Positions 4,390-35,441 are shown, counted from the first letter of the stretch. The stretch: 64,000 nucleotides of DNA from an uncultured Rubrivirga sp. (GCA_964550285.1 CAZJYN010000004.1:1950-65949), one strand, 5' to 3'. A program made the numbers and translations. The notes: generated from the sequence alone by a model not told the origin.

Positions 4390-5298
4390 CTACGTGTGTA
4401 CCGTCATGAATCGGGTGTTGAGATCGCCTTCGTAGTAGAAGACGGCACGACCGATCTGGTCCTCAGTCCAGGTGATGGTCGGGAATTCCGGGTCCGGGCG
4501 ATAGCCCCCGGTGAAGACTTCGTTTCTGGTACCCAGCGGATCGAAGAAGTAGATCGTGTTTCCGCGGGTGATCCCGTGCCGAGTCGGACCGACATCGATC
4601 TGGATTCCGTTATAGGCGAGAACATCCGCGGAGCGACGTACGTGGTCCCAATCATCGAGCCACCACGCGAAGTGATGCAGGCCGCCGTTCTTGCCCGAGA
4701 CGATCGCGAGGTCGTGCGGACTGTCGGTCACCGTCATCCAGGTGGCGGCCTGGTGGCCCTGCCCATCCAGCAATTGTTCGGTAGTCCGAAAACCGAAGAC
4801 GTCCTCGTAGAACTTGGTCGAATCACCCACCTCTTCGGCGGTCACCAACAGGTGATCTAGGCGTGGTGGGGCGATACCGGTCAACCCCTCGACGAAGGGA
4901 GCGGGATTGATGGGCGCGGTCGCTCTGCCGACCATGTCCAAATCGGCGACGAGTTCCATCGTCTGCCCGGACGGGGTCTCGAACTGGATCGACTCCCCCT
5001 GCCCTATGCGATTCCCCTTGGAGATGCGGCGAACCGGGAACCCGTACTGCGAGACCCGATTTTCGAGTTCGTCGAGATCATCCTCACGGTCTACCTTGAA
5101 CGACATCAGGTCGAAGCCGACCCGCGGCCCGTATATCAACCGCAGCGAATGGTGGTTCGGCTCGTCCCAGCACTTGAGGTAGACCGAGTTCTCGTCCCGC
5201 TCAGTTTCGAGCAGGCCGATGACCTCGGTGTAGTACGCCGTGGCTAGGTCAAGGTCGGTGACCGTGACGTCAACGTGCGCCAGCCTTTGCAAACCCAT
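4390..5298 (-). CDS. catechol 2,3-dioxygenase (extradiol, two-domain VOC fold), copy 2
   Basis: 302 aa paralogue of the adjacent gene. It shares LATAYYTEVIGL, VYLKCWDE, PPRLDH, GGLHHFAWW and RNEVFTGGY. RBS GAGGGAG lies upstream of ATG 5298. Confidence 0.9.
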   Translation of the reverse strand: MGLQRLAHVDVTVTDLDLATAYYTEVIGLLETERDENSVYLKCWDEPNHHSLRLIYGPRVGFDLMSFKVDREDDLDELENRVSQYGFPVRRISKGNRIGQGESIQFETPSGQTMELVADLDMVGRATAPINPAPFVEGLTGIAPPRLDHLLVTAEEVGDSTKFYEDVFGFRTTEQLLDGQGHQAATWMTVTDSPHDLAIVSGKNGGLHHFAWWLDDWDHVRRSADVLAYNGIQIDVGPTRHGITRGNTIYFFDPLGTRNEVFTGGYRPDPEFPTITWTEDQIGRAVFYYEGDLNTRFMTVHT

Positions 5299-5317
5299 GG
5301 AATGTTCGCTCCCTCAC

Positions 5318-5335
5318 TTGTGTCACAGGACACAA
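5318..5335. promoter_or_regulatory. perfect 7-4-7 inverted repeat TTGTGTC-ACAG-GACACAA in the divergent control region (candidate IclR-type operator)
   Basis: Read directly from the sequence: TTGTGTCACAGGACACAA. It lies about 20 bp upstream of the start of dioxygenase copy 2 and about 100 bp upstream of the opposite operon, which encodes the IclR regulator. Confidence 0.35.
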
Positions 5336-5431
5336 CATCGATTGCGTGGAGCGTGACGGTAAGTGGAATGTGTCCCGCATGGAAGTACGTCGTCCCATCT
5401 ACAGGAACACCCGCTGCTAGCGTCCCGAAGC

Positions 5432-6097
5432 ATGGCAGCAGGTGCTCCCGAGCAGATGCGATCGGCGATGGCCGACTACATCCGTGCGGTGCATGAGGCC
5501 TACCTAGACGCCGCGGACCCCCTGCCACCGGCCGACCGCGCCCGACTACCGCTGTTCACCGACCGCCCGTTCACCGTGATCGCCGCAGGAACCCGTTACC
5601 TGCATGTCCTCGCGACGACCGACCCCTTGCCCGAACCCGTTGGCCAGGAGGTGCGCATCGAGGACAGCGCGAACGAACTGAACTGGAGTTTGCGCTTCTA
5701 CGACCCCGTCGTAGCGCCGGGGCTGGGACTGATCGACGAAGCCGATGCTCCGCAACCGACCCAGGTGCGCGACACCCTGGGAGTGCGAACTGTGCTTTAC
5801 CACCTGTCCGTGCCACCCGGTGGAGGGTTGACGGCTCATCACGCGCAGCACGCCGGAACCGGGCTGGCGCATTCGCACGCGGCAGCCGATCGTGATTTCA
5901 CCACGATGGCCGGATTGCAGCCCGCAAACGGGGAACTCATAGCCGAGATGCACGCTGCGCACGTCAACTCGATGCCGAATGCGCTGCGCCTGCTTGCAAA
6001 CGAACTCCTCGGTAAGCAAGCCATCGAGGCTTCGACCACCGACGTCGAATCGATCCGGCGGGCGGCACTGGAAGAACTCAGGTCAGCACAACGATGA
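5432..6097 (+). CDS. hypothetical protein (no family recognised), first gene of the lower-pathway operon
   Basis: ORF 5363..6097. I prefer ATG 5432 (MAAGAPEQMRSAMADYIRAVHEAY), but no clear RBS is visible, so the start is uncertain. Its stop overlaps the IclR start in an ATGA at 6094-6097. Contains a His-rich patch HHAQHAGTGLAHSH. Confidence 0.5.
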   Translation: MAAGAPEQMRSAMADYIRAVHEAYLDAADPLPPADRARLPLFTDRPFTVIAAGTRYLHVLATTDPLPEPVGQEVRIEDSANELNWSLRFYDPVVAPGLGLIDEADAPQPTQVRDTLGVRTVLYHLSVPPGGGLTAHHAQHAGTGLAHSHAAADRDFTTMAGLQPANGELIAEMHAAHVNSMPNALRLLANELLGKQAIEASTTDVESIRRAALEELRSAQR

Positions 6098-6903
6098 GCG
6101 AGGACACCCCCACACCTCGGCGGGCGCATTCGACACTGTCGAGTGTCCGCAATGCCGCGCGCCTGCTGCGCGAATTCTCCAAGGGCCCTCGCGAGTTGGG
6201 GGTTACCGAACTGTCCCGTCGCCTCGGAGTGGGCAAGAGCACCGCGCACCGTCTTGTGAACACACTCACCGAAGAACGACTCCTCGAACAAGACCCCGAC
6301 ACCGGTGCGTACCGACTCGGCCTCGCGATGTACGAGTTGGGGACCTCGGTCTACTGGCATACCGATCTACACGAAGCCTGCACTCCCGTTTTGGACCAAT
6401 TGCGCAACTCGACCAAGGAGACCGCGCAAGTGGCGGTGCTCGACGGCCACGAAGTCGTATACGTGGAACGACGAGAAAGTCCGCAGACCCTTCGACTCTT
6501 CGGACGTGTCGGGCATCGCAACGACGCGCACTGCACCAGCACCGGGAAACTGCTGCTGGCCTGCCTGCCCCCGGAACAACTCGATCGCACGTTGCGGGGC
6601 TGGCGACTTCCCGCCAAGACCCCTTACACCGTCACCAAGATCGATGATCTGCGCAAACAGTTGCAGACGATCCAAGCCCAGGGATGGGCAGAGAACATCA
6701 ACGAGGCCGAGCTCGGCGTCGCATCGGTAGCTGCGCCGATTCGTAACGGACTAGGGGAAGTGGTCGCAGCTGTGTCGATCGCCGGCCCCGTCCAACGACT
6801 TGGCGGGGAGTCACTACGCAGATTCGCCCGGCCCTGCATCGAAGCCGGGCTAGCCATCAGTCGACGTCTCGGTTACCGAGATTCCAAAGGAGGCCGCTTA
6901 TGA
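6094..6903 (+). CDS. IclR-family transcriptional regulator
   Basis: N-terminal winged HTH (LGVTELSRRLGVGKSTAHRLVNTL) plus an IclR effector domain (GHRNDAHCTSTGKLLLA, AAVSIAGP). ATGA overlaps at both ends (6094, 6900). Confidence 0.9.
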   Translation: MSEDTPTPRRAHSTLSSVRNAARLLREFSKGPRELGVTELSRRLGVGKSTAHRLVNTLTEERLLEQDPDTGAYRLGLAMYELGTSVYWHTDLHEACTPVLDQLRNSTKETAQVAVLDGHEVVYVERRESPQTLRLFGRVGHRNDAHCTSTGKLLLACLPPEQLDRTLRGWRLPAKTPYTVTKIDDLRKQLQTIQAQGWAENINEAELGVASVAAPIRNGLGEVVAAVSIAGPVQRLGGESLRRFARPCIEAGLAISRRLGYRDSKGGRL

Positions 6904-7712
6904 GCAACCTGACCGACGCCCAGGCGAGGGAGTTCGCGAACGCGCTGTACGAGGCACGCCGCGACCGGATTCCGATCCCGCCCTTCACCGAATCGATGCC
7001 CGAACTCGGCATGGCAGATGGCTACGCGATCCAGCAGCACCTGGTGAATCGCCTCGTGTCCGATGGTCACGAGATCTGCGGGTACAAACTCGGGCTCACT
7101 TCCGCACCGATGCAACAGCTACTCGGGGTCGATCAGCCGGACTTCGGGCCGGTCTTCGCGAATACCGTGCATCGGGACGGTTCCATCGTTCGCACATCGG
7201 ATTTCATCGCACCCCGTGTCGAGGCGGAGATAGCTGTGATCCTCGGGTCGGAACTGCAGGGGCCGAACTGCACACCAGCCGATGCCTATCTGGCAACCCG
7301 GGGACTGGCAGCATCCATCGAGATCGTGGACTCCCGCATCGAGGACTGGCGGATTTCGATCGCCGACACGGTCGCCGACCTAGCCAGCAACGGCGCCATC
7401 GCTCTAAGTAGCGCCGTGATCCCGATCGAGGACTTCGATCCCCGTCTCGTCGGGATGGTCTTCACCCGAGACGGCAACGTCGTGGCGACGGGAGCAGGGG
7501 CAGCAGCATTGGGCGATCCCCTCGCAGCGGTCGCATGGCTCGCCAACACGCTCGCTCCCATGGGCGTCACGCTGCCGGCCGGCAGCGTGATCTTGACCGG
7601 GGCGTTGCACGCGATGACGCCCATCAACCCCGGTGAGGTCTACCGAGCGGAGTTCGACCACCTTGGGTCCATCACGCTGCGCGTCGAAGAAGTCGAAGGA
7701 GAGGAGAACTGA
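6900..7712 (+). CDS. 2-oxopent-4-enoate (2-hydroxypentadienoate) hydratase, MhpD/XylJ/DmpE family
   Basis: 270 aa. [18 protein letters not shown] and EAEIAVIL are typical of the FAH-fold hydratase/decarboxylase family. First catalytic gene after the regulator. Confidence 0.8.
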
Positions 7713-8623
7713 TGGGCAAGAGATGCGCCATCATCGGGTCGGGGAACATCGGTAGCGACTTGATGTACAAGATGCTGCGCAGCGATGTCCTCGACCTCGT
7801 CGCCGTCGTAGGAATCGATCCTGCCAGTGATGGCCTCAGTCGAGCCCGCGAAGCCGGCCTAGAGGCACCCCACACCGGACCTGACTGGGTGCTGGAGAAC
7901 TCCGACGACATCGACATGGTCTTCGATGCCACCAGTGCGTACGTGCATGTCCGCTACTACAAGAAGTACGCGGAAGCAGGAATCACCGCGATCGATCTCA
8001 CCCCGGCGGCCAGAGGCCCCAAAGTGATTCCCCCCGTAAATCTCTACGAGCATCTCGATGCGCCGAACATCAACATGGTCACATGCGGGGGGCAAGCGAC
8101 AACTCCGATGGTCTACGCGATCCGCCGCGCCATCGACACCCTGCCGTACGCCGAGATGGTCTCGACCGTTTCGAGTCGCTCGGCGGGTCCGGGCACGCGG
8201 CAGAACATCGATGAATTCACCAAGACGACTGCTACTGCTCTTCGCGAGATCGGTGGAGCCGAGCACAGCAAGGCGATCATCGTGCTGAACCCCGCGGAGC
8301 CACCGATTCTCATGCGAAACACCGTCTTCGCTGGACTCCCCGAAGGCTCCGACCACGCCGCCGTGCTCGACTCCATCCATGAAATGGCCACACAGGTCGC
8401 GAAATACGTTCCCGGCTACCGGCTGAAGAACCCTCCGGTCGTGGAAGAGGGGCCCTTCTTCACGCCGGGGGGAGAAGTCCCACACCGTGCGGTCGTGCTC
8501 CTCGAAGTCGAGGGAGCCGGCGACTATCTACCCACTTACGCCGGCAATTTAGACATCATGACGGCCGCCGCCATGCGCGTCGGTGAGGCCGTGGCACACG
8601 CACAGCAGGAGGTACTCGCATGA
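7712..8623 (+). CDS. acetaldehyde dehydrogenase (acetylating), DmpF/MhpF/XylQ family
   Basis: [19 protein letters not shown]-binding N-terminus and [10 protein letters not shown] active-site Cys context. TGATG junction with the upstream gene and ATGA junction with the aldolase. Confidence 0.9.
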
Positions 8624-9663
8624 GCGCGGAGATTCTTAGCCCCGACGTCGACTACCGCCTTATCGACTCAACGCTTCGGGACGGTTCGCATGCGATCAGC
8701 CACCAATACGAGGCCGATGAAGTCATCGCGATCGTGCGGGGACTAGATGCAGCCGGTGTCCAGGTGATCGAGATCGCCCACGGAGACGGACTCGGCGGGT
8801 CGAGCTTCAACTACGGCTTCTCGAAGGTCGATGAGAAGGAACTCATCGCACGCGCCTGCGACGAAGCGCGGAATTCCACCATCGCTTGCCTGCTTCTCCC
8901 AGGTATCGGGCTCGCCGACGATCTGAAGGATGTGCAAGAGCTCGGAGTCGGCATGGCGCGAATCGCCACACACTGCACCGAGGCCGACATCAGCGAGCAG
9001 CACATCAAGACCGCGAAGCAACTCGGTATGGAGACTGTCGGCTTCATGATGATGGCCCACATGAACTCCCCCGAGGGCCTCGTCGAACAAGCATTGCTGA
9101 TGCAGTCCTATGGAGCAGACGCCATCTACATCGCCGACTCAGCCGGCGCCATGACCACCGAAGATGTCCGGCGTCGAGTGAACGCACTCGTGCAGGCTCT
9201 GGAGGTCCCGGTCGGTGTCCACGCCCACAACAACCTGTCGATGGCCGTAGCGAACTCGATCGCGGCCTACGAGGAAGGCGCGGCGAACCTCGACGGGACG
9301 AGTGCGGGATTGGGCGCCGGAGCAGGCAACTGCCCGACTGAGATCCTCGCTGCCGTATCGAACAAGTACGGAATCACAACCGGCGTCGATGCACTGAAGT
9401 TGATGGACGTCGCAGAAGAGGTCGTTCGGCCCATGATGCCCCGACAACAGGTGATCGATCGAGCCGGCCTTATCTTGGGGTACGCCGGCGTGTACGGCTC
9501 CTTCCTGCTGCACGCGCAGAAAGCAGCTGAGCGCTACAACGTCCCCCAGGCCGACATCCTGCTCGAACTCGGTCGTCGCAAGGTCGTCGGCGGTCAAGAG
9601 GACATGATCATCGACGTCGCCTTGGAATTGGCGCGCGAGCACGCAGGTCAGGAGGAATCGTGA
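8620..9663 (+). CDS. 4-hydroxy-2-oxovalerate aldolase, DmpG/MhpE/XylK family
   Basis: [28 protein letters not shown], and the canonical pairing directly after the acylating dehydrogenase. Confidence 0.9.
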
Positions 9664-11033: not shown

Positions 11034-11680
11034 ACGCCCAGGGGCTGCTGCTAGATGTCGGTGTCGTCTTCTTCAAGTCGGCGTGGGAGATCGCGGATGA
11101 TTACGAGCGTCTACGCGGGCTACCCCCCGGCACCGTCGTGGGTCGGGGACCACTCGATCCGGGTGGTGACGAGCGTTGGGAGCGATACCGGGCAGGGGAA
11201 GCGACAGAGCGCGAGTATTGGCTCGACTTCGCGGCCAAGGCGCAAGCCAACGGCGCTCCACTTGATGGCCACCCCACTTTGATGAGAGCCATGTTCCAAA
11301 CACCGGGTATCGAGGTCACTAGGCCGGAGGCCATCGATCTCGTCCGGAAGGCACGCGGTACCGACAGGCGAGTCGGCATCTTGACCAACGAACTCATGGA
11401 CTTCCAAGGGCGAGACTGGGTCGAATCGCAAGAGTGGTTCGAGTGGTTCCCAGTACTGATTGACTCGACCGAACTAGGCATACGCAAGCCCGACCCCCGC
11501 CCCTACGAGGTGGCAATCGAACAGATGGGGTTGCCCGCCGAAGAGATCGTCTTCATCGACGACAACCCGACCTACGTTGCAGGCGGTGAGGCGGTTGGCC
11601 TGCAGAGCCTGCTTCTCGACGTTCGCGAACCAGGTGCTGTATTCGCAGAGGCGAGTCGCCGTTTGGGCCTTACCGATTGA
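11030..11680 (+). CDS. HAD-superfamily hydrolase (subfamily IA-like) with atypical motif I
   Basis: ORF 10727..11680 trimmed to ATG 11030 (MNAQGLLLDVGVVFF). HAD motifs: LLDVGVV (I), ILTNE (II), RKPD (III), FIDDN (IV). Motif I reads D-V-G, so the second Asp of phosphatase-type HADs is missing. Confidence 0.7.
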   Translation: MNAQGLLLDVGVVFFKSAWEIADDYERLRGLPPGTVVGRGPLDPGGDERWERYRAGEATEREYWLDFAAKAQANGAPLDGHPTLMRAMFQTPGIEVTRPEAIDLVRKARGTDRRVGILTNELMDFQGRDWVESQEWFEWFPVLIDSTELGIRKPDPRPYEVAIEQMGLPAEEIVFIDDNPTYVAGGEAVGLQSLLLDVREPGAVFAEASRRLGLTD

Positions 11681-13100
11681 TCTGCATCACCACTGCTTTG
11701 GGTTCGGTGAAGAACTCCCGACTGAAGTTGCCGCCCTCGCGTCCCACGCCGGATTCCCCGACTCCGCCGAAGGGTGCCCGTAGGTCCCGGATGAAGAAGC
11801 AGTTGACCCACACCGTCCCGGCGTTCAAGCTATCTGCCACCCGGTGTGCGCGGCTGAGATTCTCGGTGAACACCATCGCGTTCAACCCGTACTTGGTGTC
11901 GTTGGCTACTTGCACCACTTCATCTTCGGTGTCGAAGGGTTGAACGACCACCACTGGGCCGAAGATCTCCTCTCGGCAGACCCGAGCGGCCGGTGGGGCG
12001 TCGACGATGATGGTGGGATCGACGAACCAGCCCTCGCCTACGCCTCCCGTCAGGACGCGACCCCCATCGGCTTCGAGAGTGTCGAAGTAGCTCGTGACCT
12101 TCTCGAAGTGCGTCTTGCTGGCGAGCGGACCAAACTCCGTGCCCGCGTCCTTCGGGTCTCCTTGGCGCATCGCCTGGGCAGCCTGGACGTAACGCTCGAG
12201 GAATTCCTCGTAGATGCCGCGCTGCACGAACAGCCGGGAACCGGCAAGACAGACCTGCCCGGCATTTCGGAATATCGCCTGGATCGCCCAATTGACGGCG
12301 TTGTCCAGATCGGCATCGTCGAACACGATGTTGGCGCCCTTGCCACCCAATTCCAAGGAAACGGGAATGAGGTGCTTCGACGCAGCGGCGCTGATGATCT
12401 TCCCGGTTGTGGATTCTCCGGTGAAGGTGATCCGATCGACGTTCGGATTGTGGGTAAGTGCCTCGCCCACCGATTCCGGACCGAACCCGTGCACCACGTT
12501 CAAGACGCCGGGTGGGAGACCGGCTTCGAGCGCGAGCCGAGCCCAGATCGTGACAGAGACCGGGGTGTCCTCGGCCGGCTTGAGAACGACCGTGTTGCCC
12601 CAGGCGAGCGCCGGTGCCACCTTCCAGGTGCTCAACATCAACGGGAAGTTCCACGGTGAGATCGCGACCGCCACACCCGCGGGTCCGTAGGACGAATAGG
12701 CGTGATGCCCGGAGTCCATCGGGTAGGTCTCCGCAGCGGTCAAGCGCGCATGATCGGCAAAGAATCGGACATTCCATGCACTGCGGGCAACATCGTGGTG
12801 GGCCTGGGTTATCGGCTTACCCATGTCGCGGGTGTCGGCCAGGGCGAGTTCCTCGGCGTTGTCCATCATCAGATCGGCGAGCCGGTGCAAGATGCCTTGG
12901 CGCTTCTCGTAGCCCATGTGCGGCCAGGGACCTGAATCGAACGCTGCCCGGGCAGCCGCGACTGCTGCATCGGCATCCGGCGCGCCCCCCAGGGCGACGT
13001 CAGCCCAGGGCTCGCGGGTGTATGGATCGATGGTTTCCATCGTGCGCCCGTCGATCGACGGGACTTCCTCGCCCCCGATGATGTGACCGTAGAAGTTCAT
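11670..13100 (-). CDS. 2-hydroxymuconic semialdehyde dehydrogenase (XylG/DmpC-like NAD+ aldehyde dehydrogenase)
   Basis: 476 aa ALDH. FTGESTTGK, LELGGKGANIVF, catalytic Cys in NAGQVCLAGSRL. The C-terminal VWVNCFFIRDLRAPFGGVGESGVGREGG is, as I remember it, typical of HMSD/HpaE-type enzymes. Confidence 0.8.
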   Translation of the reverse strand: MNFYGHIIGGEEVPSIDGRTMETIDPYTREPWADVALGGAPDADAAVAAARAAFDSGPWPHMGYEKRQGILHRLADLMMDNAEELALADTRDMGKPITQAHHDVARSAWNVRFFADHARLTAAETYPMDSGHHAYSSYGPAGVAVAISPWNFPLMLSTWKVAPALAWGNTVVLKPAEDTPVSVTIWARLALEAGLPPGVLNVVHGFGPESVGEALTHNPNVDRITFTGESTTGKIISAAASKHLIPVSLELGGKGANIVFDDADLDNAVNWAIQAIFRNAGQVCLAGSRLFVQRGIYEEFLERYVQAAQAMRQGDPKDAGTEFGPLASKTHFEKVTSYFDTLEADGGRVLTGGVGEGWFVDPTIIVDAPPAARVCREEIFGPVVVVQPFDTEDEVVQVANDTKYGLNAMVFTENLSRAHRVADSLNAGTVWVNCFFIRDLRAPFGGVGESGVGREGGNFSREFFTEPKAVVMQINR

Positions 13101-28247: not shown

Positions 28248-28292
28248 CTTCCTAGCCGTACTCGACGATCGACTTCCAGGTACTGTTCAGGA

Positions 28293-28481
28293 GTGGATCA
28301 AACCCGCCGGTTGCGTTTCTCGCTATTTCTCCAGATATTCGCCGTCGTCATGTTCACCGGTGCCGGTTTGGTTCGGGCATTCGCCCTCGGATTCGACACT
28401 TTGACACTGGTGCTGCTCGGTGCGGCAGCGATCTCCACTGTGATCGCCGTACTGACCTTCATCCAACTTCGCGACGAGTAG
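28293..28481 (+). CDS. possible small two-TM membrane protein
   Basis: 62 aa with two clear hydrophobic helices. GTG start with AGGAG too close upstream. Supported by composition only. Confidence 0.3.
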   Translation: MDQTRRLRFSLFLQIFAVVMFTGAGLVRAFALGFDTLTLVLLGAAAISTVIAVLTFIQLRDE

Positions 28482-28494
28482 CAGGCGAAAGGGG

Positions 28495-29358
28495 CTACGA
28501 GGCGGAAAGCGCCGATCGCCTGCCGCACACCTCACGGACGACCGAGACCAGGTCGTCATCGGCCTTCGTGACAGCCGTGGGGGCACGATGCAAATCGACC
28601 GTTACCGGGGCAAGGGCGGGCAGATCGAAGACCTCGTCGATCTCGACCATGCCCGTTGGAATCGATCGCCGGGACTTCACTGCAACGGCCAGCCCGGCTG
28701 CGACGGTGGCATTCACCGCTGCAGCGCTATCGCTTACATAGCGGACCGTCCAATCGATGCCGGCGCGTGCGAGAGCGTCGATCGCATGGGCGCGATGGAT
28801 GCAACCTTCCGGATTGGCTGCGATGGGAAGGGCCGAACCGCGATCCCAGTGCATATCCGGATGGGCGATCCACACCAGATCCTCGATGTCGATCGTCTCT
28901 CCTGCTGGCGTGTCCGTGTGCCGGATGGTCAGTGCTACGTCGAGCAAACCGTCTGCCAACTTTTGTGCAAGCACCGAGGAAACCGAGCAGTCGATCTGGA
29001 CACCTACCTGTGGGTGCAAGGACATGAAGCGCCGCAGGATCTCAGGCAGGAACTGGTCGGCCTGCTCGGTGGTGATACCCAAGCGCAGTGCCGGCCGGTT
29101 GCCCTCGCCGCTGACCAAGGAGCTCGCGGTGTCGCTGAGATTGAGTAGGCGTCGCGCGTAGGGCAACAAGGTGATCCCGGCATCGGTTAGCACCACGCTG
29201 CGAGTCGTCCGGTCGAACAGACGCACGCCGAGGTCTCGTTCCAACTTGGAGATCTGTGCGCTGACAGCGGACTGAGTCAAGTTGAGCATCTGCGCGGCGG
29301 AGGAGAATCCGTGGGTCTCCGCGACCGCGACGAAGGTCGACAACTGCTGCAACTCCAC
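28495..29358 (-). CDS. LysR-family transcriptional regulator
   Basis: MELQQLSTFVAVAETHGFSSAAQMLNLTQSAVSAQISKLERDLG is the canonical LysR HTH. It is followed by a LysR substrate-binding domain. Divergent from the enzyme cluster. Confidence 0.9.
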   Translation of the reverse strand: MELQQLSTFVAVAETHGFSSAAQMLNLTQSAVSAQISKLERDLGVRLFDRTTRSVVLTDAGITLLPYARRLLNLSDTASSLVSGEGNRPALRLGITTEQADQFLPEILRRFMSLHPQVGVQIDCSVSSVLAQKLADGLLDVALTIRHTDTPAGETIDIEDLVWIAHPDMHWDRGSALPIAANPEGCIHRAHAIDALARAGIDWTVRYVSDSAAAVNATVAAGLAVAVKSRRSIPTGMVEIDEVFDLPALAPVTVDLHRAPTAVTKADDDLVSVVREVCGRRSALSAS

Positions 29359-29463
29359 ACCGCCAATTTACAACTATTCGCGATAGGTTCAACCACAAAT
29401 ATTCGTTTCTCTTTTCAGTGGATTCCTCCTACCGTCGGTCGGGACGTCCACGAGAGGAGATCC

Positions 29464-30294
29464 ATGAGTGTCATCGACCTCGTCCGCTACCCCATCGATC
29501 GACCCGGCCCGGCCCGCGATGCACTGATCGCTGAGTGCCGCCGGCAACTCACCGAGACCGGGTGCGTGGTGCTGGAGGGATTCGTCACCTCAGCTGCGCT
29601 GACCTCGATGAACGCCGAAGGGCGTGAACTCGCTCCGCAGGCCCACTTCAACACCACGCAAACCAATTGCTACAGCAGCGCCGATGATCCATCGCTTCCC
29701 GAGGGCCACCCCAAGCGGGTCTTCATGGAGCGAACCAACGGGTTCGTGGCCGGCGATCTCATCGGACCAGGCACCGCGGTTCGCGGACTGTACGAAAGCG
29801 AAGCCCTCCGCATGTTCGTAGCCGCCTGCATGGATGTGGACGAGATCTACGACTACGGCGACCCTCTTGGGCACCTCGTCTTCAATGTCCTGCGTCCAGG
29901 CACCCAGCATCCGTGGCACTTCGACAACAACGATTTCATCGTTACCTTGCTGACCCAGAAAGCCGACGCAGGTGGGAAGTTCGAATACTGTCCCCGGATA
30001 CGTTCGAAGCAGGACGAGAACATCGGATCGGTTGCAGCGACCCTTGCTGGCGACGACACCCTCGTGCACAGGTTGGATCCCGATCCTGGCTCGCTGCAGA
30101 TCTTCTACGGGCGGCACTCCTTGCACCGGGTCACGAGGATCGAAGGAGACCGCGAGCGGCACACGCTCATCCTGGGCTATTCCGATACCCCGGGTGAGAT
30201 CGCCGATGCCGAGCGGACCAAGCGGCTCTTCGGCAGGGCAACACCAGAGCACGAACGTGCTGCCCGCGAAGGCCGCGAGCGAGTGTCGGTGTAA
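29464..30294 (+). CDS. Fe(II)/2-oxoglutarate-dependent oxygenase-like protein
   Basis: ORF 29311..30294 trimmed to ATG 29464 (RBS GAGAGGAGA). HPWHFDNND supplies an HxD facial-triad candidate, and GRHSLHRVT supplies the distal His plus Arg. Family assignment made by eye only. Confidence 0.55.
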   Translation: MSVIDLVRYPIDRPGPARDALIAECRRQLTETGCVVLEGFVTSAALTSMNAEGRELAPQAHFNTTQTNCYSSADDPSLPEGHPKRVFMERTNGFVAGDLIGPGTAVRGLYESEALRMFVAACMDVDEIYDYGDPLGHLVFNVLRPGTQHPWHFDNNDFIVTLLTQKADAGGKFEYCPRIRSKQDENIGSVAATLAGDDTLVHRLDPDPGSLQIFYGRHSLHRVTRIEGDRERHTLILGYSDTPGEIADAERTKRLFGRATPEHERAAREGRERVSV

Positions 30295-30296
30295 CG

Positions 30297-31568
30297 ATGC
30301 TGCAACCCATCGAACCGGAGGCCTTGACCGATCTGGAAACCCCGAGCGCTGGCGCCGATGTCACGGGGGTGACCGATAGCTTGCCGCCCGGCTTCGACCC
30401 GGTGCGTATGCGCGCTGACCGACTAGCGCGGGTCAGAGCGATGATGCGCGATCAAGACCTCGCGGCCGTCATCCTCTTCGATCCCTACAACCAGCGTTAC
30501 GCCACGGGATCGCGCAACATGTTCGGGTACTTCCTGCGCAATTCGACTCGATACATCTACGTACCCCTCGAGGGCGATGTCATCTTGTTCGAGTATCCAG
30601 GATCCGCGCACGTTTCGACCTGGCTCGAGACCATCGACGATAACCGCACCTCGCAGGTGGTGTGGTCCGCAGTCAACAGTAAGGACACCGCAGTCGCCCG
30701 GCCCTTCGCCGAGGAGATTGCTGCCCTGGTGCGGGCCGATGGACGCGGTAGCAACCGCGTTGGGTTGGATCGATGCGGGCATTTGCACGCACTCGCACTG
30801 GAGGAGGCCGGTCTTCAGGTCATGGACGTGATGGGCGATCTCCTGTACACACGTCGCCTCAAGACGCCGGATGAGATCGCGTGCCTGCGCCTATCCATGG
30901 CCACGACCGAAGCCGCGATGGCCGCCGTCGAACGCAGCATTCGACCGGGCATCACTGAGAACGAACTCTTCGGTGTGTTCTATGGCGAAGTGATCAGCCG
31001 AGGAGGGGAGTTCGTCGAGACTCGCCTGCTGAGTTCAGGGCCACGCACCGAACCCTGGTTCAACGAAGCAAGCGAACGCAGTATCCGTCATGGTGATCTG
31101 ATCGCCTTCGATACCGACACCATCGGAAACAACGGCTACTACTCCGATTTCTCGCGCACGTTCCAGGTGGGGCCCGGTCGGCCGACGGGATACCAACGCA
31201 CCCTCTACGGCATGGCCTACGAGCAGGTCCAACACAACATCGCCCAACTCCGGCCGGGGATGACCTACCGTGAACTGGCCGAGAAGGCCTGGCCTATCCC
31301 CGAGCGCTACTACGACCGCCGCTACCCATCCATCATCCATGGAGTGGGGATGCACGGGGAGACTCCGCTCGTCGCGCATTACGGGGACTTCGACCGATTT
31401 TCCACCGACGACGTTCTCGAACCCGGCATGGTGGTCTCGGTGGAGAGCTACATCGCGGAAGTCGGCGGCGGTGAGGGGATCAAGCTCGAAGAGGAGGTCC
31501 TCATCACGGCTGAAGGCGTCGAGTTGATCTCCAAATATCCATTCGACGAGCGTCTCCTGGGGTCCTGA
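30297..31568 (+). CDS. M24-family metallohydrolase (creatinase/prolidase/ectoine-hydrolase-like)
   Basis: 423 aa. Creatinase-like N-domain followed by a pita-bread domain (KTPDEIACLR, DLIAFDTD, IHGVGMHGE, VVSVESY, IKLEEEVLIT). Confidence 0.8.
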   Translation: MLQPIEPEALTDLETPSAGADVTGVTDSLPPGFDPVRMRADRLARVRAMMRDQDLAAVILFDPYNQRYATGSRNMFGYFLRNSTRYIYVPLEGDVILFEYPGSAHVSTWLETIDDNRTSQVVWSAVNSKDTAVARPFAEEIAALVRADGRGSNRVGLDRCGHLHALALEEAGLQVMDVMGDLLYTRRLKTPDEIACLRLSMATTEAAMAAVERSIRPGITENELFGVFYGEVISRGGEFVETRLLSSGPRTEPWFNEASERSIRHGDLIAFDTDTIGNNGYYSDFSRTFQVGPGRPTGYQRTLYGMAYEQVQHNIAQLRPGMTYRELAEKAWPIPERYYDRRYPSIIHGVGMHGETPLVAHYGDFDRFSTDDVLEPGMVVSVESYIAEVGGGEGIKLEEEVLITAEGVELISKYPFDERLLGS

Positions 31569-31583
31569 CAGCACAATTCACCC

Positions 31584-32453
31584 ATGCCGGAGAAACTCGT
31601 CGTCGCAGCGGCCCAGATCCCGACCGTTCCCGAGGACATAGCGGCCAACCTGGAGACCCACCTGGACTACATCGCCCAGGCCCGAGCACGTGGCTGTGAC
31701 CTGCTGGTCTTCCCGGAGTTGTCCCTGACCGGCTACACACTGTCGGATGAAAGCTTTCGACTCGCTCGCTCCCGTCACTCGAAGGTGGTCAGGCAGATCG
31801 CCGAGGCGTCCCGGGATATCACGACACAGTTCGGCTTCATCGAGGAAGGGCCAGCCGCGCAGTTCTACAACGCGACGCTCGCTGTTCGCGACGGCGAGAT
31901 CCGCCATCTGCACCGGAAGGTGAACCTTCCGTCCTACGGCAATCTCGATGAGAACAAGCACTTCGCAACCGGGCGCTTCATGGAGACTGCCCGTCTCGAC
32001 GAAACGTGGCGCTACGCGATCGTCATCTGCGCCGATGCTTGGAATCCGGCACTCGTGCACCTAGCCGCCATGAACGGTGCGACCTTGCTCAGCGTGCCGA
32101 TCAGTTCCTCGATCGATGCGGTCGAGGGCGAATTCTCCAACCCCAACGGCTGGGATCTCGCTGTCCGCTTCTACGCGATGATGTACGGGATGCCGGTCGT
32201 CATGACGAACCGGGTCGGCACTGAGGGCGATCATCGCTTTTGGGGTGGGTCGGCGGTCATCGATGCACACGGCCGGATACTCGCCCAGTCGGGTGACCAG
32301 CCGGAACTGCTGACGGCCGAACTCGATTACACCCAAGTGCGCGAGGCTCGTTTCCATTTGCCGACGGTGCGCGATTCGAACTTCGCGCTTATCCAACGTG
32401 AGGTGAATCGACTGTCCGAGGTGCTGGGCGTTCCCGATAGCGTCCGCGAGTGA
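31584..32453 (+). CDS. carbon-nitrogen hydrolase (nitrilase superfamily amidase)
   Basis: VAAAQIP, LLVFPELSLTGY (catalytic Glu), HRKVNLP (Lys), IVICADAWNP (Cys). These make up the E-K-C triad contexts. Confidence 0.85.
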   Translation: MPEKLVVAAAQIPTVPEDIAANLETHLDYIAQARARGCDLLVFPELSLTGYTLSDESFRLARSRHSKVVRQIAEASRDITTQFGFIEEGPAAQFYNATLAVRDGEIRHLHRKVNLPSYGNLDENKHFATGRFMETARLDETWRYAIVICADAWNPALVHLAAMNGATLLSVPISSSIDAVEGEFSNPNGWDLAVRFYAMMYGMPVVMTNRVGTEGDHRFWGGSAVIDAHGRILAQSGDQPELLTAELDYTQVREARFHLPTVRDSNFALIQREVNRLSEVLGVPDSVRE

Positions 32454-33187
32454 TAGGTACACGGAATCTGCTGGCCCTCACCGGGGCCCTAGCCGTCCTG
32501 GTTGGCTTACTCGCAGCCGCCGGGCCGCAGCCTCAGACACCCAACGATGGGCAACTGCATCAGGTGGGAACGTACGAATACTTGACCCAGCCCGACTTCA
32601 CCGGCCTTGCCGCTGTGGGTGCTCTCGCCGACGGCAACACAATCGGATTGGGTACCTTCGCCGATCTCGACGGCGAACTCGTAATGCTCGGCGGTGAGGT
32701 CTATCGGGTGCGTCCTGACGGCACCCCACGACTGGTGGGTGCGCGAACGCCGACACCCTTCATGCAAGCCACCCGTTTCCGCCCCACAGCGAATGCGCCG
32801 ATCCCTCCCGGGACGAAGTGTCGTGATCTGGTGCCAGTCATCCAACGGGAGGCACAACGCACGAACGGGATCATCGCCGTGCGTGTTCGCGGCACCTTCG
32901 ATGAACTGACCACGCGAAGTATCAACGCCGATCCCCCGCCCTACCAGCCGCTTAGCCAAACGATCGCCGAGCAGACCACCTTCGATCTAAACGGCTCCCG
33001 CGCAGTGCTCGTCGGTTTCTGGCAGGGCAAGGATGCTCTCGGTGTGGGGCAGGACGGACTGCACCTGCACGGACTCACCGCGGATCGCACTGCCGGCGGA
33101 CATGTGCTCTCCTGCAGCGTCGGGTCCGATACCCAGATCTCCGTCCAACCAATCACCGAAGTGAAGTTGCTGACTCCCGCGAACTAG
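32450..33187 (+). CDS. alpha-acetolactate decarboxylase-family protein with N-terminal signal/TM segment
   Basis: GLGTFADLDGELVMLGGEVYRV and the His cluster GLHLHGLTADRTAGGHVL match the ALDC fold and Zn ligands. The N-terminus MIGTRNLLALTGALAVLVGLLAAAG is hydrophobic. GTGA overlap with the upstream gene. Confidence 0.7.
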   Translation: MIGTRNLLALTGALAVLVGLLAAAGPQPQTPNDGQLHQVGTYEYLTQPDFTGLAAVGALADGNTIGLGTFADLDGELVMLGGEVYRVRPDGTPRLVGARTPTPFMQATRFRPTANAPIPPGTKCRDLVPVIQREAQRTNGIIAVRVRGTFDELTTRSINADPPPYQPLSQTIAEQTTFDLNGSRAVLVGFWQGKDALGVGQDGLHLHGLTADRTAGGHVLSCSVGSDTQISVQPITEVKLLTPAN

Positions 33188-34581
33188 GCAGCAACGATGG
33201 CCGTAACCGCCTCGGCGAACAATTCGGTGTGTCGATCGACATCCGCTTCGGTGGTTGTCGGGCACATCAAGGCCATGTTGTGGAAGGGCGTCATGAGGAC
33301 TCCCCTGTTGGCCATGAATAGATGCAGGTAGACCTCGAGCTCCTCATCGTGTGCCTGCGCGGATTCGGTTCCGGTGCGAGGTGGGGGATCCACGAACCGA
33401 TACTCGGCACGAGCGCCGAGCTGGGCCACCGACCACGGCACCGCGGTGTCGGACAAAACCTTCTCCACTCCTTCTCGAAATCGAGTGGCCAGAGCGATCA
33501 TGTGCTCGAAGGCCGAGTCCGTCAGCACCTCACCCAACGTCGCTCGCATCGCCGATGTGCTCAGTACGTTGCCGGCAAGGGTGCCGCCGACACCGCCGAC
33601 ATCGATGAGGTCGGCTTCCGGATGATCGTTGATCCGTTCAGCGATCCTTGAGGTGATCCCGTAGGCACCGGAGGGAACTCCGCCGCCGATGCTCTTGCCG
33701 ATGACCACGATGTCCGGGCGAAGATTCCAAGCACTCGTGCAGCCACCGGGACCTGCCGAGATCGTGTGCGTTTCATCGATCAACAACAAGGTCCCGTATC
33801 GATCGCAGAGTTCCCGGACCGATTCCCAGAAGCCTGGGTCGGGTAGCACGATGCCGATGTTGGTCAAGGCAGGCTCGGCGATCAGGACCGCCACATCTCC
33901 ATGGGACAGGGCGGCTTCCACGGACGCGAGATCGTTGAATTCGGCCACCCGGGTCGTTTGCGCAACCGGGACAGCCGGTCCGACGTTCCCTTCGCGCTCG
34001 ATGGTCGATCCGTCCGGGCCGGTGCGCACCAAAGTCTCATCGACCGCGCCGTGATAGCAGTAAGAGAAGGCGCAGATCTTGTCGCGCCCGGTGACTAGAC
34101 GGGCGATCCGCAATGCCCACCTATTCGCATCCGTGGCCGTGAGCGAGAGCGACCACAACGGCAAGCCGAAGCGACGGGCGAGGTCCGCTGCCACCCATTC
34201 GCCATCCGCGGTGGGCAGCATGGTCGTAATGCCACCTGCACCATCGATGCGATCACGGACGGCACGCACGGTTGCTGCTGGGGAGTGCCCGGCCATGGCA
34301 CCGGTATCTCCAAGAGCGAAGTCGATGTACTCGTGACCATCGACATCGGTAATGCGATTACCCAAAGCGGTCTCGAAATGGATGGGGTATCCACCGGACC
34401 ACTTGTTCATCCAGGTCATCGGGACCCGACCAAGTAGATGGTCCGCGGCTTCGAACAATTCCCGTGACTTCGGGGTACGCACGCGGTAGGTCTCGCTCTC
34501 TTGACTAATCGCTCGCTCCAACACCGCGCGATCGATGGCAACCACGTCTTCTCCTTGTGCTTGTTTTCGACTAACTGGCAC
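33184..34581 (-). CDS. class-III PLP-dependent aminotransferase (GSA-aminomutase-like)
   Basis: 465 aa. DFALGDTGAMAGHSP, LLIDETHT, IVVIGKSIGGG (PLP Lys). Convergent with the cluster, with a 4-bp overlap. Confidence 0.85.
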   Translation of the reverse strand: MPVSRKQAQGEDVVAIDRAVLERAISQESETYRVRTPKSRELFEAADHLLGRVPMTWMNKWSGGYPIHFETALGNRITDVDGHEYIDFALGDTGAMAGHSPAATVRAVRDRIDGAGGITTMLPTADGEWVAADLARRFGLPLWSLSLTATDANRWALRIARLVTGRDKICAFSYCYHGAVDETLVRTGPDGSTIEREGNVGPAVPVAQTTRVAEFNDLASVEAALSHGDVAVLIAEPALTNIGIVLPDPGFWESVRELCDRYGTLLLIDETHTISAGPGGCTSAWNLRPDIVVIGKSIGGGVPSGAYGITSRIAERINDHPEADLIDVGGVGGTLAGNVLSTSAMRATLGEVLTDSAFEHMIALATRFREGVEKVLSDTAVPWSVAQLGARAEYRFVDPPPRTGTESAQAHDEELEVYLHLFMANRGVLMTPFHNMALMCPTTTEADVDRHTELFAEAVTAIVAA

Positions 34582-34703
34582 TTATAGGTGGGGATAACCC
34601 GCCTTCTGCGGCTCCCCCGAGAAGGGGTAGCAGCAGCATAAGCGGCAGCGTGGCCGCCGTGAAGTTCCGAGGCGGTCCACGATGGAGTAGGCGGAGGAAT
34701 ATC

Positions 34704-35441
34704 GTGAACGCTCGTAGTCTCATCGCCGAGTTCGTCGGCACTTTCCTGTTGGTCTTCCTTGCTGTCGGAACGGCGATCTTCGGTATCGCCGCGCTGGTGG
34801 GCATCGACGGTCAGGGACCAGGTTCCGGTGTAGTGGGGGTGGCCCTCGCCTTCGGACTCGTACTGCTCGGGATCGCCTACGCCTTCGGCCCGATCTCCGG
34901 GGCGCACGTGAATCCCGCGGTGACCTTGGCGATGCTCGTCGGGCGCCGCATGCCCGCCGGCCAGGCGATCGGCTACTGGATCGTGCAGTTCCTCGGCGCG
35001 GTCGCCGCCGGCGGACTGCTCAAGTTGTTCGTCAGCAGTTTCGGCGTCACCGACTACACCGGTGCGCTCGGAACGAACAGCTACGACAACGGCGCCATCA
35101 ACCTCGCCGGCGCATTCGTGCTCGAGGTGATCCTCACAGCCGCCTTCGTCCTCGTGATCCTGCTGGTCACCGAGAAGATCGCCGCACCGGGCTTCGCAGG
35201 CGTAGCCATCGGCCTGACGTTGACCCTCGTCCACCTCGTCGGCATCCCGTTGACCGGAACCTCCGTCAACCCGGCTCGCTCCCTGGGGCCGGCGCTATTC
35301 GAAGGAGGCACCGCGATGCAACAGGTGTGGTTGTTCATCCTCGCCCCGCTAGTCGGTGCGGTCGTAGCGGTCGCCATCTGGCGAGCAACCCGCACCGAGC
35401 AGGAAGAAGAACGCGAAATCGTGGCAGGCGACGAGCGCTAG
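34704..35441 (+). CDS. aquaporin / MIP-family channel
   Basis: Two NPA boxes (HVNPAVTLA, SVNPARSLG). ORF 34650..35441 trimmed to GTG 34704, which has RBS GGAGGA upstream. Confidence 0.85.
   Translation: MNARSLIAEFVGTFLLVFLAVGTAIFGIAALVGIDGQGPGSGVVGVALAFGLVLLGIAYAFGPISGAHVNPAVTLAMLVGRRMPAGQAIGYWIVQFLGAVAAGGLLKLFVSSFGVTDYTGALGTNSYDNGAINLAGAFVLEVILTAAFVLVILLVTEKIAAPGFAGVAIGLTLTLVHLVGIPLTGTSVNPARSLGPALFEGGTAMQQVWLFILAPLVGAVVAVAIWRATRTEQEEEREIVAGDER

Follow-up and report, generated by a model that had tools for sequence, protein, structure and literature searches.

A LysR-linked Fe(II)/2-oxoglutarate hydroxylase and DddP-related M24 enzyme form a conserved module with a predicted role in onium solute catabolism

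Results

Organization of the locus

The locus lies within a 64,000-nucleotide stretch of DNA from an uncultured Rubrivirga sp., which is referred to here as the window. A LysR-type regulator on the minus strand (28495-29358; HTH_1 88 bits, LysR_substrate 86 bits) is divergent from a plus-strand operon that opens with a Fe(II)/2-oxoglutarate (2OG) hydroxylase (29464-30294; Pfam HalD), a member of a remote subfamily of the BesD/HalA/HalB/HalD fold whose ATG has GAGAGGAG just upstream. After a gap of 2 nt follows a predicted binuclear-metal M24 enzyme (30297-31568; Peptidase_M24 and Creatinase_N) of a sister group to DddP, and after a further 15 nt a nitrilase-superfamily amidase, or C-N hydrolase (31584-32453; CN_hydrolase 134 bits). 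The amidase stop overlaps, as GTGA, the start of an ALDC-like protein that is predicted to be exported (32450-33187; AAL_decarboxy 163 bits), and a class-III aminotransferase of the PRK07046 type on the minus strand (33184-34581; Aminotran_3) converges on it with a 4-nt CTAG stop/stop overlap. These coordinates, gaps and overlaps agree throughout with those of the first-pass annotation. Gene callers shorten the aminotransferase by 12 N-terminal codons on identical metagenome contigs (453 aa, start near 34545).

The 105-nt region between the divergent LysR and oxygenase genes has a GC content of 48.6%, compared to 62.8% for the window, and carries TATTCG at 29375 and 29400, in keeping with its earlier description as an AT-rich control region with two copies of this hexamer. 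TATTCG occurs 16 times in the whole window, so the pair on its own is not significant. Each copy falls inside one of two boxes that were delineated by comparing, in register, the LysR-oxygenase intergenic regions of more than 30 loci. Both boxes keep their positions in the orthologous loci of other phyla. Predicted operator box 1 (29366..29386) adjoins the LysR start, reads ATTTACAAC-N7-GATAG and holds the TATTCG at 29375; its form in other phyla is ATCTATAAC-N7-GCGATAG. Predicted operator box 2 (29397..29418; AAATATTCGTTTCTCTTTTCAG) lies about 57 nt from the LysR start codon and holds the TATTCG at 29400. Its core, ATTCGTTTC-N5-7-TCA, keeps this distance from the LysR start codon in loci of Actinobacteria, Alphaproteobacteria and Gammaproteobacteria, and ATTCGTTTC has a single occurrence in the window. 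Judged by sequence comparison, the conservation of these two predicted operators across phyla is far beyond chance, and box 2 probably serves for activation from a position upstream of the oxygenase promoter.

The oxygenase is predicted to be a hydroxylase

The oxygenase scores 44.8 bits against Pfam HalD (PF23169), above the gathering threshold of 26. Its AlphaFold model (pLDDT 94.5) finds HalB, HalD, BesD and a Lys hydroxylase as best Foldseek matches (TM 0.65-0.75, identity 15-18%), and the top 40 matches all belong to the BesD/Hal family with a probability of 1.00. The HxD...H facial triad (H152-x-D154, H221), on which the first-pass assignment as an Fe(II)/2OG oxygenase hinged, is present on alignment and is invariant across 25 aligned relatives together with R232, the arginine for the 2OG C5-carboxylate. 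R90 is likewise invariant and aligns with HalB Arg83, which is the substrate-carboxylate arginine of that enzyme (PMC10041140). A radical halogenase needs Gly or Ala in place of the carboxylate iron ligand (HxG/A). Here the ligand is kept as H152-F-D154 in all 25 relatives, which indicates that the enzyme is a hydroxylase and not a halogenase. Relatives carry the NCBI label 'HalD/BesD family halogenase'. The family comprises 588 clusters at 50% identity (E <= 1e-30), among which there is no characterised member.

The M24 enzyme belongs to a sister group of DddP

The best PDB match of the M24 protein is DddP (4s01/4rzy), at 235 bits over the full length, while creatinase reaches 34 bits and the ectoine hydrolase models DoeA (TIGR02993) and DoeA_2 (NF038259) reach 24 and 44 bits against cut-offs of 613 and 575. 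By these scores, DddP is a far better match than creatinase or ectoine hydrolase, and a DoeA/EutD identity can be set aside. It scores 291 bits against the DddP equivalog model NF043017, below the cut-off of 600; a second Marivibrio M24 protein scores 369 bits. Thus, the remark in the first-pass annotation that the genes fit none of the doe/eut, creatine or DMSP sets holds.

The M24 protein keeps the full set of DddP metal ligands, six in number (three Asp, one His and two Glu; PMC4108388), with D272, D274, D284, H348, E383 and E398 aligning to DddP D295, D297, D307, H371, E406 and E421; the set includes the extra Asp, the sixth metal ligand, that is specific to DddP. Tyr343 corresponds to DddP Y366 and Tyr78 occupies the position of W95 (DddP residue roles from PMC4108388 and PMC5395565). 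The enzyme is nevertheless not a true DddP: Asp377, the proposed base, is invariant in DddP and replaced by Gly in every oxygenase-linked M24 protein. Here the residue is Gly354 within an invariant HGVGMHGETP motif, and the second M24 clade has HGVGM(T/N)GEYP in this region. DMSP lyase activity yields DMS and acrylate, and the loss of Asp377 suggests that the chemistry of the oxygenase-linked enzymes may differ from DddP-type elimination.

Extent and spread of the conserved module

Linkage was counted over 32 distinct loci whose oxygenases reach at least 49% identity. A divergent LysR gene lies less than 600 nt from the oxygenase in 30 of 31 related loci, with LysR orthologues in Proteobacteria at 48-68% identity. 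Among 28 related actinobacterial and proteobacterial loci, 26 have the M24 gene (at least 60% identity) directly downstream of the oxygenase, and between the two phyla the M24 proteins are about 70% identical. The amidase, whose Glu-Lys-Cys triad is readable in the translation as FPE, HRK and ICAD motifs, is present in 9 of the 18 module loci with at least 6 kb on both sides; its orthologues (46-56% identity) follow an Opu transporter or the M24 gene in proteobacterial loci. One relative (G006) has the amidase but neither LysR, oxygenase nor M24, indicating that the amidase can serve alone. Its second-best NCBIfam match is N-carbamoylputrescine amidase (87 bits).

Gene neighbourhoods thus support the proposed LysR-controlled operon of oxygenase, M24 enzyme and amidase, and leave the ALDC-like and aminotransferase genes without a link to it outside this genus. 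From these comparisons, the predicted conserved unit consists of LysR, a BesD/HalD-fold hydroxylase, a DddP-sister M24 enzyme and a nitrilase-superfamily amidase, and is smaller than the five-enzyme set first put forward. The oxygenase was found in 4 of 20 species of the genus, with part of the module in a fifth, and in none of 41 other relatives searched, a patchy spread that points to horizontal transfer. Carriers are mostly halophiles, and culturable ones include Dichotomicrobium thermohalophilum and Roseospira goensis. We found no paper on the module, and no characterised pathway matches its gene set.

The ALDC-like protein and the aminotransferase are resident neighbours

The ALDC-like protein has an H-x-H-x10-H zinc motif and a hydrophobic N-terminus. 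Although it has the fold and His motif of acetolactate decarboxylase, its 129 bits against the TIGR01252 equivalog fall below the cut-off of 180.65, and no alsS/budB (acetoin-pathway) context was seen around the gene, which argues against acetolactate decarboxylase proper. The gene was found only in this genus and diverges faster than its neighbours (77-80% versus 94-98% identity). It adjoins the aminotransferase in G006, which is without LysR-oxygenase-M24, and is missing from an 87%-identical cluster in another locus (L003). The aminotransferase scores 614 bits against NF005453 (cut-off 425) and 423 bits against PDB 5ykr, and has 71-83% orthologues in three relatives (G006, G020, G023), all without the oxygenase. 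Neither gene accompanies the module in any lineage outside the genus across 115 loci. On this comparative evidence, the aminotransferase appears as a resident core gene of the family and the ALDC-like gene as a resident neighbour, neither being part of the module and both at most recruited locally. A possible local use of the aminotransferase would be to interconvert malonate semialdehyde and beta-alanine.

Transporters and accessory enzymes at related loci

An OpuC/ProX-type ABC importer (permease, CBS-ATPase, permease, OpuAC) is present in 7 of the 18 loci with at least 6 kb on both sides. The linked binding protein has A. fulgidus ProX as its best match (169 bits) and keeps K13, T66, R149, Y63, Y111 and Y214, with Y190 replaced by F, so that the aromatic cage and carboxylate binders of ProX are retained. 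In a second oxygenase and M24 clade the linked genes encode OpuAC, BCCT, a choline-dehydrogenase-like GMC enzyme and an aldehyde dehydrogenase (ALDH), and in a third oxygenase clade MttB and a DMGDH-like demethylase. The linked transporters point to a solute of the betaine type, combining an onium group with a carboxylate. A CoA-acylating (methyl)malonate-semialdehyde dehydrogenase (MMSDH; TIGR01722 644-661 bits, cut-off 448) lies directly 3′ of the M24 gene in four loci (L042, L045, L048, L051), which are close relatives (MMSDH 79-88% identical) and count as one or two independent observations. At other loci, genes for an AcrC-like acyl-CoA dehydrogenase and an AMP-ligase, and PrpD-like genes, lie downstream of the amidase. 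In this genome an MMSDH gene is found outside the cluster; the cluster in the window has no transporter of its own, and the sole OpuAC homologue of the genome is weak (33% identity).

Discussion

We consider it somewhat more probable than not that 28495-32453 is a catabolic module gained by horizontal transfer and directed at a small onium solute that bears a carboxylate and is imported, either a betaine or a sulfonium compound. The solute appears to be a betaine-like salt-stress solute, and its breakdown route would be one that nobody has described. This retains the earlier suggestion of a catabolic route for a small N-rich solute, now as a probable N-rich or onium compatible solute given the betaine-type transporters linked elsewhere. 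Starting from the observed gene families, catalytic residues, gene order, operator boxes and links to betaine transporters and semialdehyde dehydrogenase, we infer a substrate, a hydroxylation site, an order of steps and a role for the amidase. The best candidates have a three-carbon acid arm, as in beta-alanine betaine or DMSP. LysR would bind the two conserved boxes and switch on the operon in response to the solute or an intermediate. The hydroxylase would grip the substrate carboxylate via Arg90 and hydroxylate an aliphatic carbon. The six-ligand di-metal site of the M24 enzyme would then hold the carboxylate, with the cationic head group between Tyr78 and Tyr343, and cleave the carbon-heteroatom bond of the hydroxylated intermediate. 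The head group would leave as an amine or sulfide, and the C3 carbonyl compound formed alongside it would most likely be malonate semialdehyde. This would be taken by the CoA-acylating semialdehyde dehydrogenase, which some lineages encode within the operon and this genome encodes outside the cluster. The amide hydrolysed by the amidase may belong to a precursor of the solute or to a co-product. As a counterpoint, a simple betaine or DMSP route offers no obvious amidase substrate.

More specifically, we tentatively suggest, as a minority expectation, that the oxygenase and M24 enzyme constitute a new two-enzyme oxidative cleavage of beta-alanine betaine and/or DMSP to malonate semialdehyde and trimethylamine (TMA) or dimethylsulfide (DMS). 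Hydroxylation on the carbon bearing the quaternary N or S would lead to spontaneous collapse, making a dedicated M24 lyase hard to justify. If true, the two-enzyme system would fill the missing C-N cleavage step in beta-alanine betaine and homocholine catabolism, and it would release climate-active TMA or DMS in saline and soil habitats by a new biological route that bypasses acrylate.

The M24 family also invites a hydrolytic reading, since creatinase and ectoine hydrolase are among its members. A cyclic amidine, guanidino or ureido acid, such as 3-guanidinopropionate or an ectoine-like solute, would be degraded by ectoine/agmatine-deiminase logic: the M24 enzyme would open or deiminate the amidinium or guanidinium group, the nitrilase-type enzyme would strip an acyl or carbamoyl group to leave a diamino acid or beta-alanine, the aminotransferase or the Fe/2OG enzyme would turn the amine to an aldehyde, and an ALDH would complete the route. 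This gives every enzyme a linear role, including the amidase with its 87 bits to N-carbamoylputrescine amidase; class-III aminotransferase and MMSDH are known beta-alanine sinks, and cation-pi cages can hold amidinium or guanidinium groups too. We nevertheless regard it as unlikely, because the M24 enzyme scores 235 bits to DddP compared to 24-44 for the ectoine hydrolase models and 34 for creatinase and keeps the DddP-specific sixth metal ligand, because the linked transporters and accessory enzymes are all of the quaternary-amine kind (ProX/OpuC, BCCT, choline-dehydrogenase-like, MttB), and because the aminotransferase stands outside the conserved module and the oxygenase is left with no necessary role.

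The single LysR-controlled pathway first proposed, with oxygenase, M24 enzyme, amidase, ALDC-fold decarboxylase and aminotransferase acting together at this locus, seems less probable still. The ALDC-like gene is probably co-transcribed here, given the GTGA overlap and the lack of any terminator-like site within 29464-33187, and the aminotransferase and a beta-keto-acid decarboxylase could both use malonate semialdehyde. Yet the aminotransferase runs in the opposite direction, converging on the operon, and is kept by relatives that have no oxygenase, and the ALDC-like protein has a predicted export signal and the independent distribution described above. We hold it to be even more doubtful that the oxygenase and M24 enzyme tailor rather than degrade a solute, turning an amino acid into a hydroxylated or modified osmolyte or a small natural product, with betaine transporters as mere neighbours. 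Characterised BesD/HalD members are biosynthetic and act on free Lys or Orn (PMC10041140), and the mostly halophilic carriers are organisms that make and tailor osmolytes; but an operon divergent from LysR that combines ABC-type uptake with an amidase and a CoA-acylating semialdehyde dehydrogenase has a layout typical of catabolism, and no recurrent methyltransferase, ligase or exporter was seen at related loci.

The proposed onium solute module shares its oxygenase-first logic with CntAB (carnitine) and GbcAB (glycine-betaine), which initiate C-N cleavage of a quaternary amine to an amine and a (semi)aldehyde, and whose clusters carry a LysR-type regulator, an aldehyde dehydrogenase and a betaine transporter. 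CntAB and GbcAB are Rieske two-component oxygenases that need neither an M24 partner nor an amidase, whereas the module has an Fe/2OG oxygenase with both. In ddd clusters such as dddD-dddT-dddA-dddC-dddR, a LysR regulator and a betaine-type importer are joined by DddC, an MMSDH-type enzyme for the oxidation of malonate semialdehyde. Unlike the module, these DMSP-cleavage clusters (reviewed in PMC5395565) are without an Fe/2OG enzyme or nitrilase-type amidase, and their lyases are from other families or are true DddP. DoeABCD/EutDE similarly apply an M24 hydrolase, a deacylase, a class-III aminotransferase and an ALDH to a zwitterionic osmolyte, but have no oxygenase and a deacylase (DoeB) from another family; here, the aminotransferase is outside the module and the DoeA models score only 24-44 bits against 575-613. 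The recently found homarine operon homABCDER, for an osmolyte and infochemical, has a peptidase-like enzyme, an ALDH, a betaine-type transporter and a regulator, and opens the ring via the flavin pair HomAB (PMC13236597), with no Fe/2OG enzyme.

At the level of the enzymes, the oxygenase shares with the BesD/HalA/HalB/HalD halogenases and their lysine-hydroxylase homologue (PDB 6nie, 7u6i, 7u6h, 7jsd) a common fold (TM 0.65-0.75), a W-H-x-D/G iron motif, an aligned substrate-carboxylate Arg and Pfam HalD membership. It differs from the halogenases in its HxD motif, at 15-18% identity, and in a catabolic, transporter-linked context where theirs is biosynthetic. The M24 enzyme and DddP (4s01/4rzy, 4b28) have in common a creatinase-type N-domain and a pita-bread fold, but only the M24 enzyme is always paired with an Fe/2OG hydroxylase.

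Results

The locus and its control region

The LysR gene (28495-29358, minus strand) is divergent from four closely spaced plus-strand genes, from which it is separated by a 105-nt control region. These encode the BesD/HalD-fold Fe/2OG oxygenase (29464-30294), with GAGAGGAG preceding its ATG, the DddP-like M24 enzyme (30297-31568, after a gap of 2 nt), a C-N hydrolase of the nitrilase-superfamily amidase type (31584-32453, after a gap of 15 nt) and an acetolactate-decarboxylase-fold (ALDC-like) protein (32450-33187), which overlaps the amidase gene through GTGA. A class-III aminotransferase gene (33184-34581, minus strand) converges on this set with a stop/stop overlap of 4 nt. ORF listing and translation upheld every gene, gap and overlap of the first-pass annotation, and each of its family calls is backed by Pfam and NCBIfam. 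The control region is indeed AT-rich with two TATTCG copies (29375 and 29400), as had been proposed, having a GC content of 48.6% compared with 62.8% in the window. Across loci, the LysR-oxygenase intergenic regions have two boxes in common and in register, one directly beside the LysR start and a second, ATTCGTTTC-N5-7-TCA, ~57 nt away from it; each box holds one of the TATTCG copies. A sequence scan found no terminator-like sites inside the four plus-strand genes, the frequency of terminator-like matches did not exceed that in shuffled sequence, and a promoter scan found no promoter.

Gene callers on identical metagenome contigs differ from the longest-ORF reading in two starts, placing those of the aminotransferase (453 aa versus 465 aa) and the aquaporin (34650-35441; 245 aa versus 263 aa) later. 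A 62-aa ORF between the ABC-2 permease and LysR (~28290-28480) is called on all of these contigs (for example at 8830-9018 of the related locus L023) and has no Pfam match.

A conserved module beside resident genes

Related loci were drawn from genome and metagenome collections and each gene was scored per locus, with conservation counted over 32 distinct loci whose oxygenase is at least 49% identical. Gene calling in high-GC loci was GC3-based, as longest-ORF calling there gave antisense artefacts. In 30/31 loci LysR is encoded divergently, no more than 600 nt from the oxygenase gene, and an M24 gene (at least 60% identity) is directly downstream of the oxygenase in 26/28, a frequency that rejects adjacency by chance. 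Among the carriers are Marivibrio, Dichotomicrobium thermohalophilum, Roseospira goensis, gammaproteobacterial MAGs, Ilumatobacteraceae and salt-pond actinobacteria that are relatives of this genome. The module ranges over Actinobacteria, Alpha- and Gammaproteobacteria in mostly saline settings, with a sister version in soil metagenomes. Within the genus the oxygenase occurs in 4/20 species, and all 41 genomes searched from elsewhere in the family or order were negative.

The first-pass annotation had placed five enzymes in a single LysR-controlled unit, but their distribution argues against this. Orthologues of the aminotransferase, which is PRK07046-type (614 bits, cut-off 425), occur at 71-83% identity in three relatives' genomes (G006, G020 and G023), all without the oxygenase. 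In G006 the ALDC-like gene adjoins the aminotransferase, with LysR, oxygenase and M24 absent, and a cluster 87% identical to this one (locus L003) has no ALDC gene. We therefore infer that the LysR-oxygenase-M24-amidase block was acquired and stands beside ALDC-like and aminotransferase genes that are resident. The amidases are orthologous across loci (46-56% identity); the one encoded here has the Glu-Lys-Cys triad motifs and matches NAD-synthetase glutaminase domains and N-carbamoylputrescine amidase best. In the ALDC-like protein the zinc His motif is present, and the N-terminus is a hydrophobic segment predicted to direct export.

Two further arrangements were seen within the genus. At L124, a locus on contig C17 of G006 (4865-8550), a fused hydrolase-ABC gene is followed by an ABC-2 permease and an 82% identical amidase, with a 557-aa membrane protein between amidase and aminotransferase; LysR, oxygenase and M24 seem to have been lost cleanly, leaving the amidase in place. 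Another species (G013) was negative in the oxygenase search, yet the end of one of its contigs carries the genes for amidase and ALDC.

Two uncharacterised enzyme subfamilies

The oxygenase passes the Pfam HalD threshold (44.8 bits, threshold 26), and its family comprises 588 clusters at 50% identity (E <= 1e-30) in a scan of 1.84 billion representative proteins. Its assignment as an oxygenase survived alignment, in which the HxD..H triad (H152-x-D154 and H221) is invariant in 25 relatives, as is R232. Because the HxD is invariant, the enzyme is expected to be a hydroxylase, and a halogenase is ruled out. NCBI and UniRef label close relatives (P0017-P0115) 'HalD/BesD family halogenase', while all 25 aligned sequences have HxD; judged from these sequences, automatic annotation has probably misnamed this subfamily. 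A PDB profile search returned HalB (E 6e-10), the lysine hydroxylase 7jsd, HalD and BesD. In the structure model (pLDDT 94.5), the nearest solved folds are all of the BesD/Hal family, with TM 0.65-0.75 at only 15-18% identity. R90, also invariant, is aligned with the Arg through which HalB binds the carboxylate of its substrate (PMC10041140).

For the M24 enzyme, the nearest solved relative is the DMSP lyase DddP (235 bits), and it scores below the DddP equivalog cut-off (291 bits against 600). All six DddP metal ligands are kept; the counterpart of Tyr366 is also present, and the residue at the Trp95 position is aromatic. Gly replaces the proposed catalytic Asp377 (residue roles from PMC4108388 and PMC5395565), inside an invariant HGVGMHGETP, and identity between phyla is ~70%. 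A Marivibrio sp. locus (L028) has a second DddP-like M24 gene at 11635-12885, 2.7 kb downstream of its oxygenase-M24 pair, that scores 369 bits against the DddP model and shows HGIGMTGEYP where the Asp motif would be. As this protein is 55-58% identical to the soil-clade M24, one Marivibrio genome has both M24 types.

Linked transporters and downstream enzymes

An OpuC/ProX-type ABC importer is attached in 7/18 loci with long flanks, usually with the amidase next after it. The importer's binding protein has A. fulgidus ProX as its nearest relative and keeps the carboxylate binders K13, T66 and R149 as well as Y63, Y111 and Y214 of the aromatic box, in which Y190 is replaced by F. Several of the gene contexts given here and below were taken from metagenome lineages that are related to one another, and they are therefore only partly independent. 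A CoA-acylating (methyl)malonate-semialdehyde dehydrogenase (MMSDH; 644-661 bits, cut-off 448) directly follows M24 in four mutually related loci and is encoded elsewhere in this genome. Additions at other loci are an AcrC-like acyl-CoA dehydrogenase with an AMP-ligase, PrpD-like proteins, or SDRs. An MmgE/PrpD-family protein, which follows the amidase in three loci (L034 5649-6968, L046 17294-18625 and L048 ~15700), has no NCBIfam match, overlaps the amidase stop codon in L034 and may be part of a larger form of the module.

In the sister clade (oxygenase 43-48% identical, M24 ~45%), the links are to OpuAC, to BCCT, to SBP_bac_5 ABC systems and to a choline-dehydrogenase-like enzyme with an ALDH; its M24 proteins are also missing Asp377. 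A third oxygenase clade, from Rhodobacteraceae, lies beside an MttB-family methyltransferase and a DMGDH-like demethylase. Each of the three contexts suggests a quaternary-amine or sulfonium carboxylate. In the third-clade loci (L013, L017 and L021, 9950-20000), the oxygenase (34-37% identity) is the first gene of an operon with an SBP_bac_5 ABC transporter, the MttB-family protein and the DAO-GCV_T (dimethylglycine-dehydrogenase-like) protein, and a fumarase-family lyase and TRAP transporter lie upstream; this is probably another uncharacterised quaternary-amine pathway.

Discussion

On the best-supported reading, the module would cleave a small onium carboxylate, with the oxygenase acting first. 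This hydroxylase would grip the carboxylate through R90 and hydroxylate the chain, the DddP-like di-metal enzyme would then cleave a carbon-heteroatom bond, and a C3 carbonyl product, probably malonate semialdehyde, would enter central metabolism. In published physiology, homocholine is oxidized to beta-alanine betaine, which is cleaved to trimethylamine and a C3 unit; we know of no enzymes assigned to that cleavage. This onium route has its weak points. A carbon attached to a quaternary N or S should, once hydroxylated, collapse spontaneously, M24 lacks the proposed DddP base, and the amidase is left without a clear substrate. The amidase is better accounted for by a hydrolytic route for a guanidino, ureido or amidine compound, but such a route fits the transporter context, the DddP-likeness of M24 and the demethylase context more poorly than onium cleavage does, and we consider it unlikely.

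Compatible solutes are a large, labile pool of C, N and S in saline and marine systems, and their breakdown yields trimethylamine and dimethylsulfide. The module joins two enzyme subfamilies, neither of which has a characterised member. If its substrate were identified, osmolyte cycling would gain a route, the automatic halogenase name would be corrected, and DddP-like enzymes without the catalytic Asp would be given a role, with a bearing on DddP evolution.

Comparison with known systems

The initial view that the genes match no known set was borne out, with the doe/eut ectoine, creatinase and DddP models all far below cut-offs and the block a member of none of the DddP, DoeA, creatinase or acetolactate-decarboxylase equivalogs. 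No paper on the LysR-oxygenase-M24-amidase combination, on PDB 5ykr or on genes for beta-alanine betaine catabolism came up in full-text literature searches. We rate the block as a probable LysR-controlled osmolyte catabolic operon made of two uncharacterised enzyme subfamilies. It is set apart from the homarine operon homABCDER, which has a flavin pair (homAB) and no Fe/2OG enzyme. In logic it is like the cnt, gbc and ddd clusters, but differs from each of them by its oxygenase class and its obligatory M24 partner.
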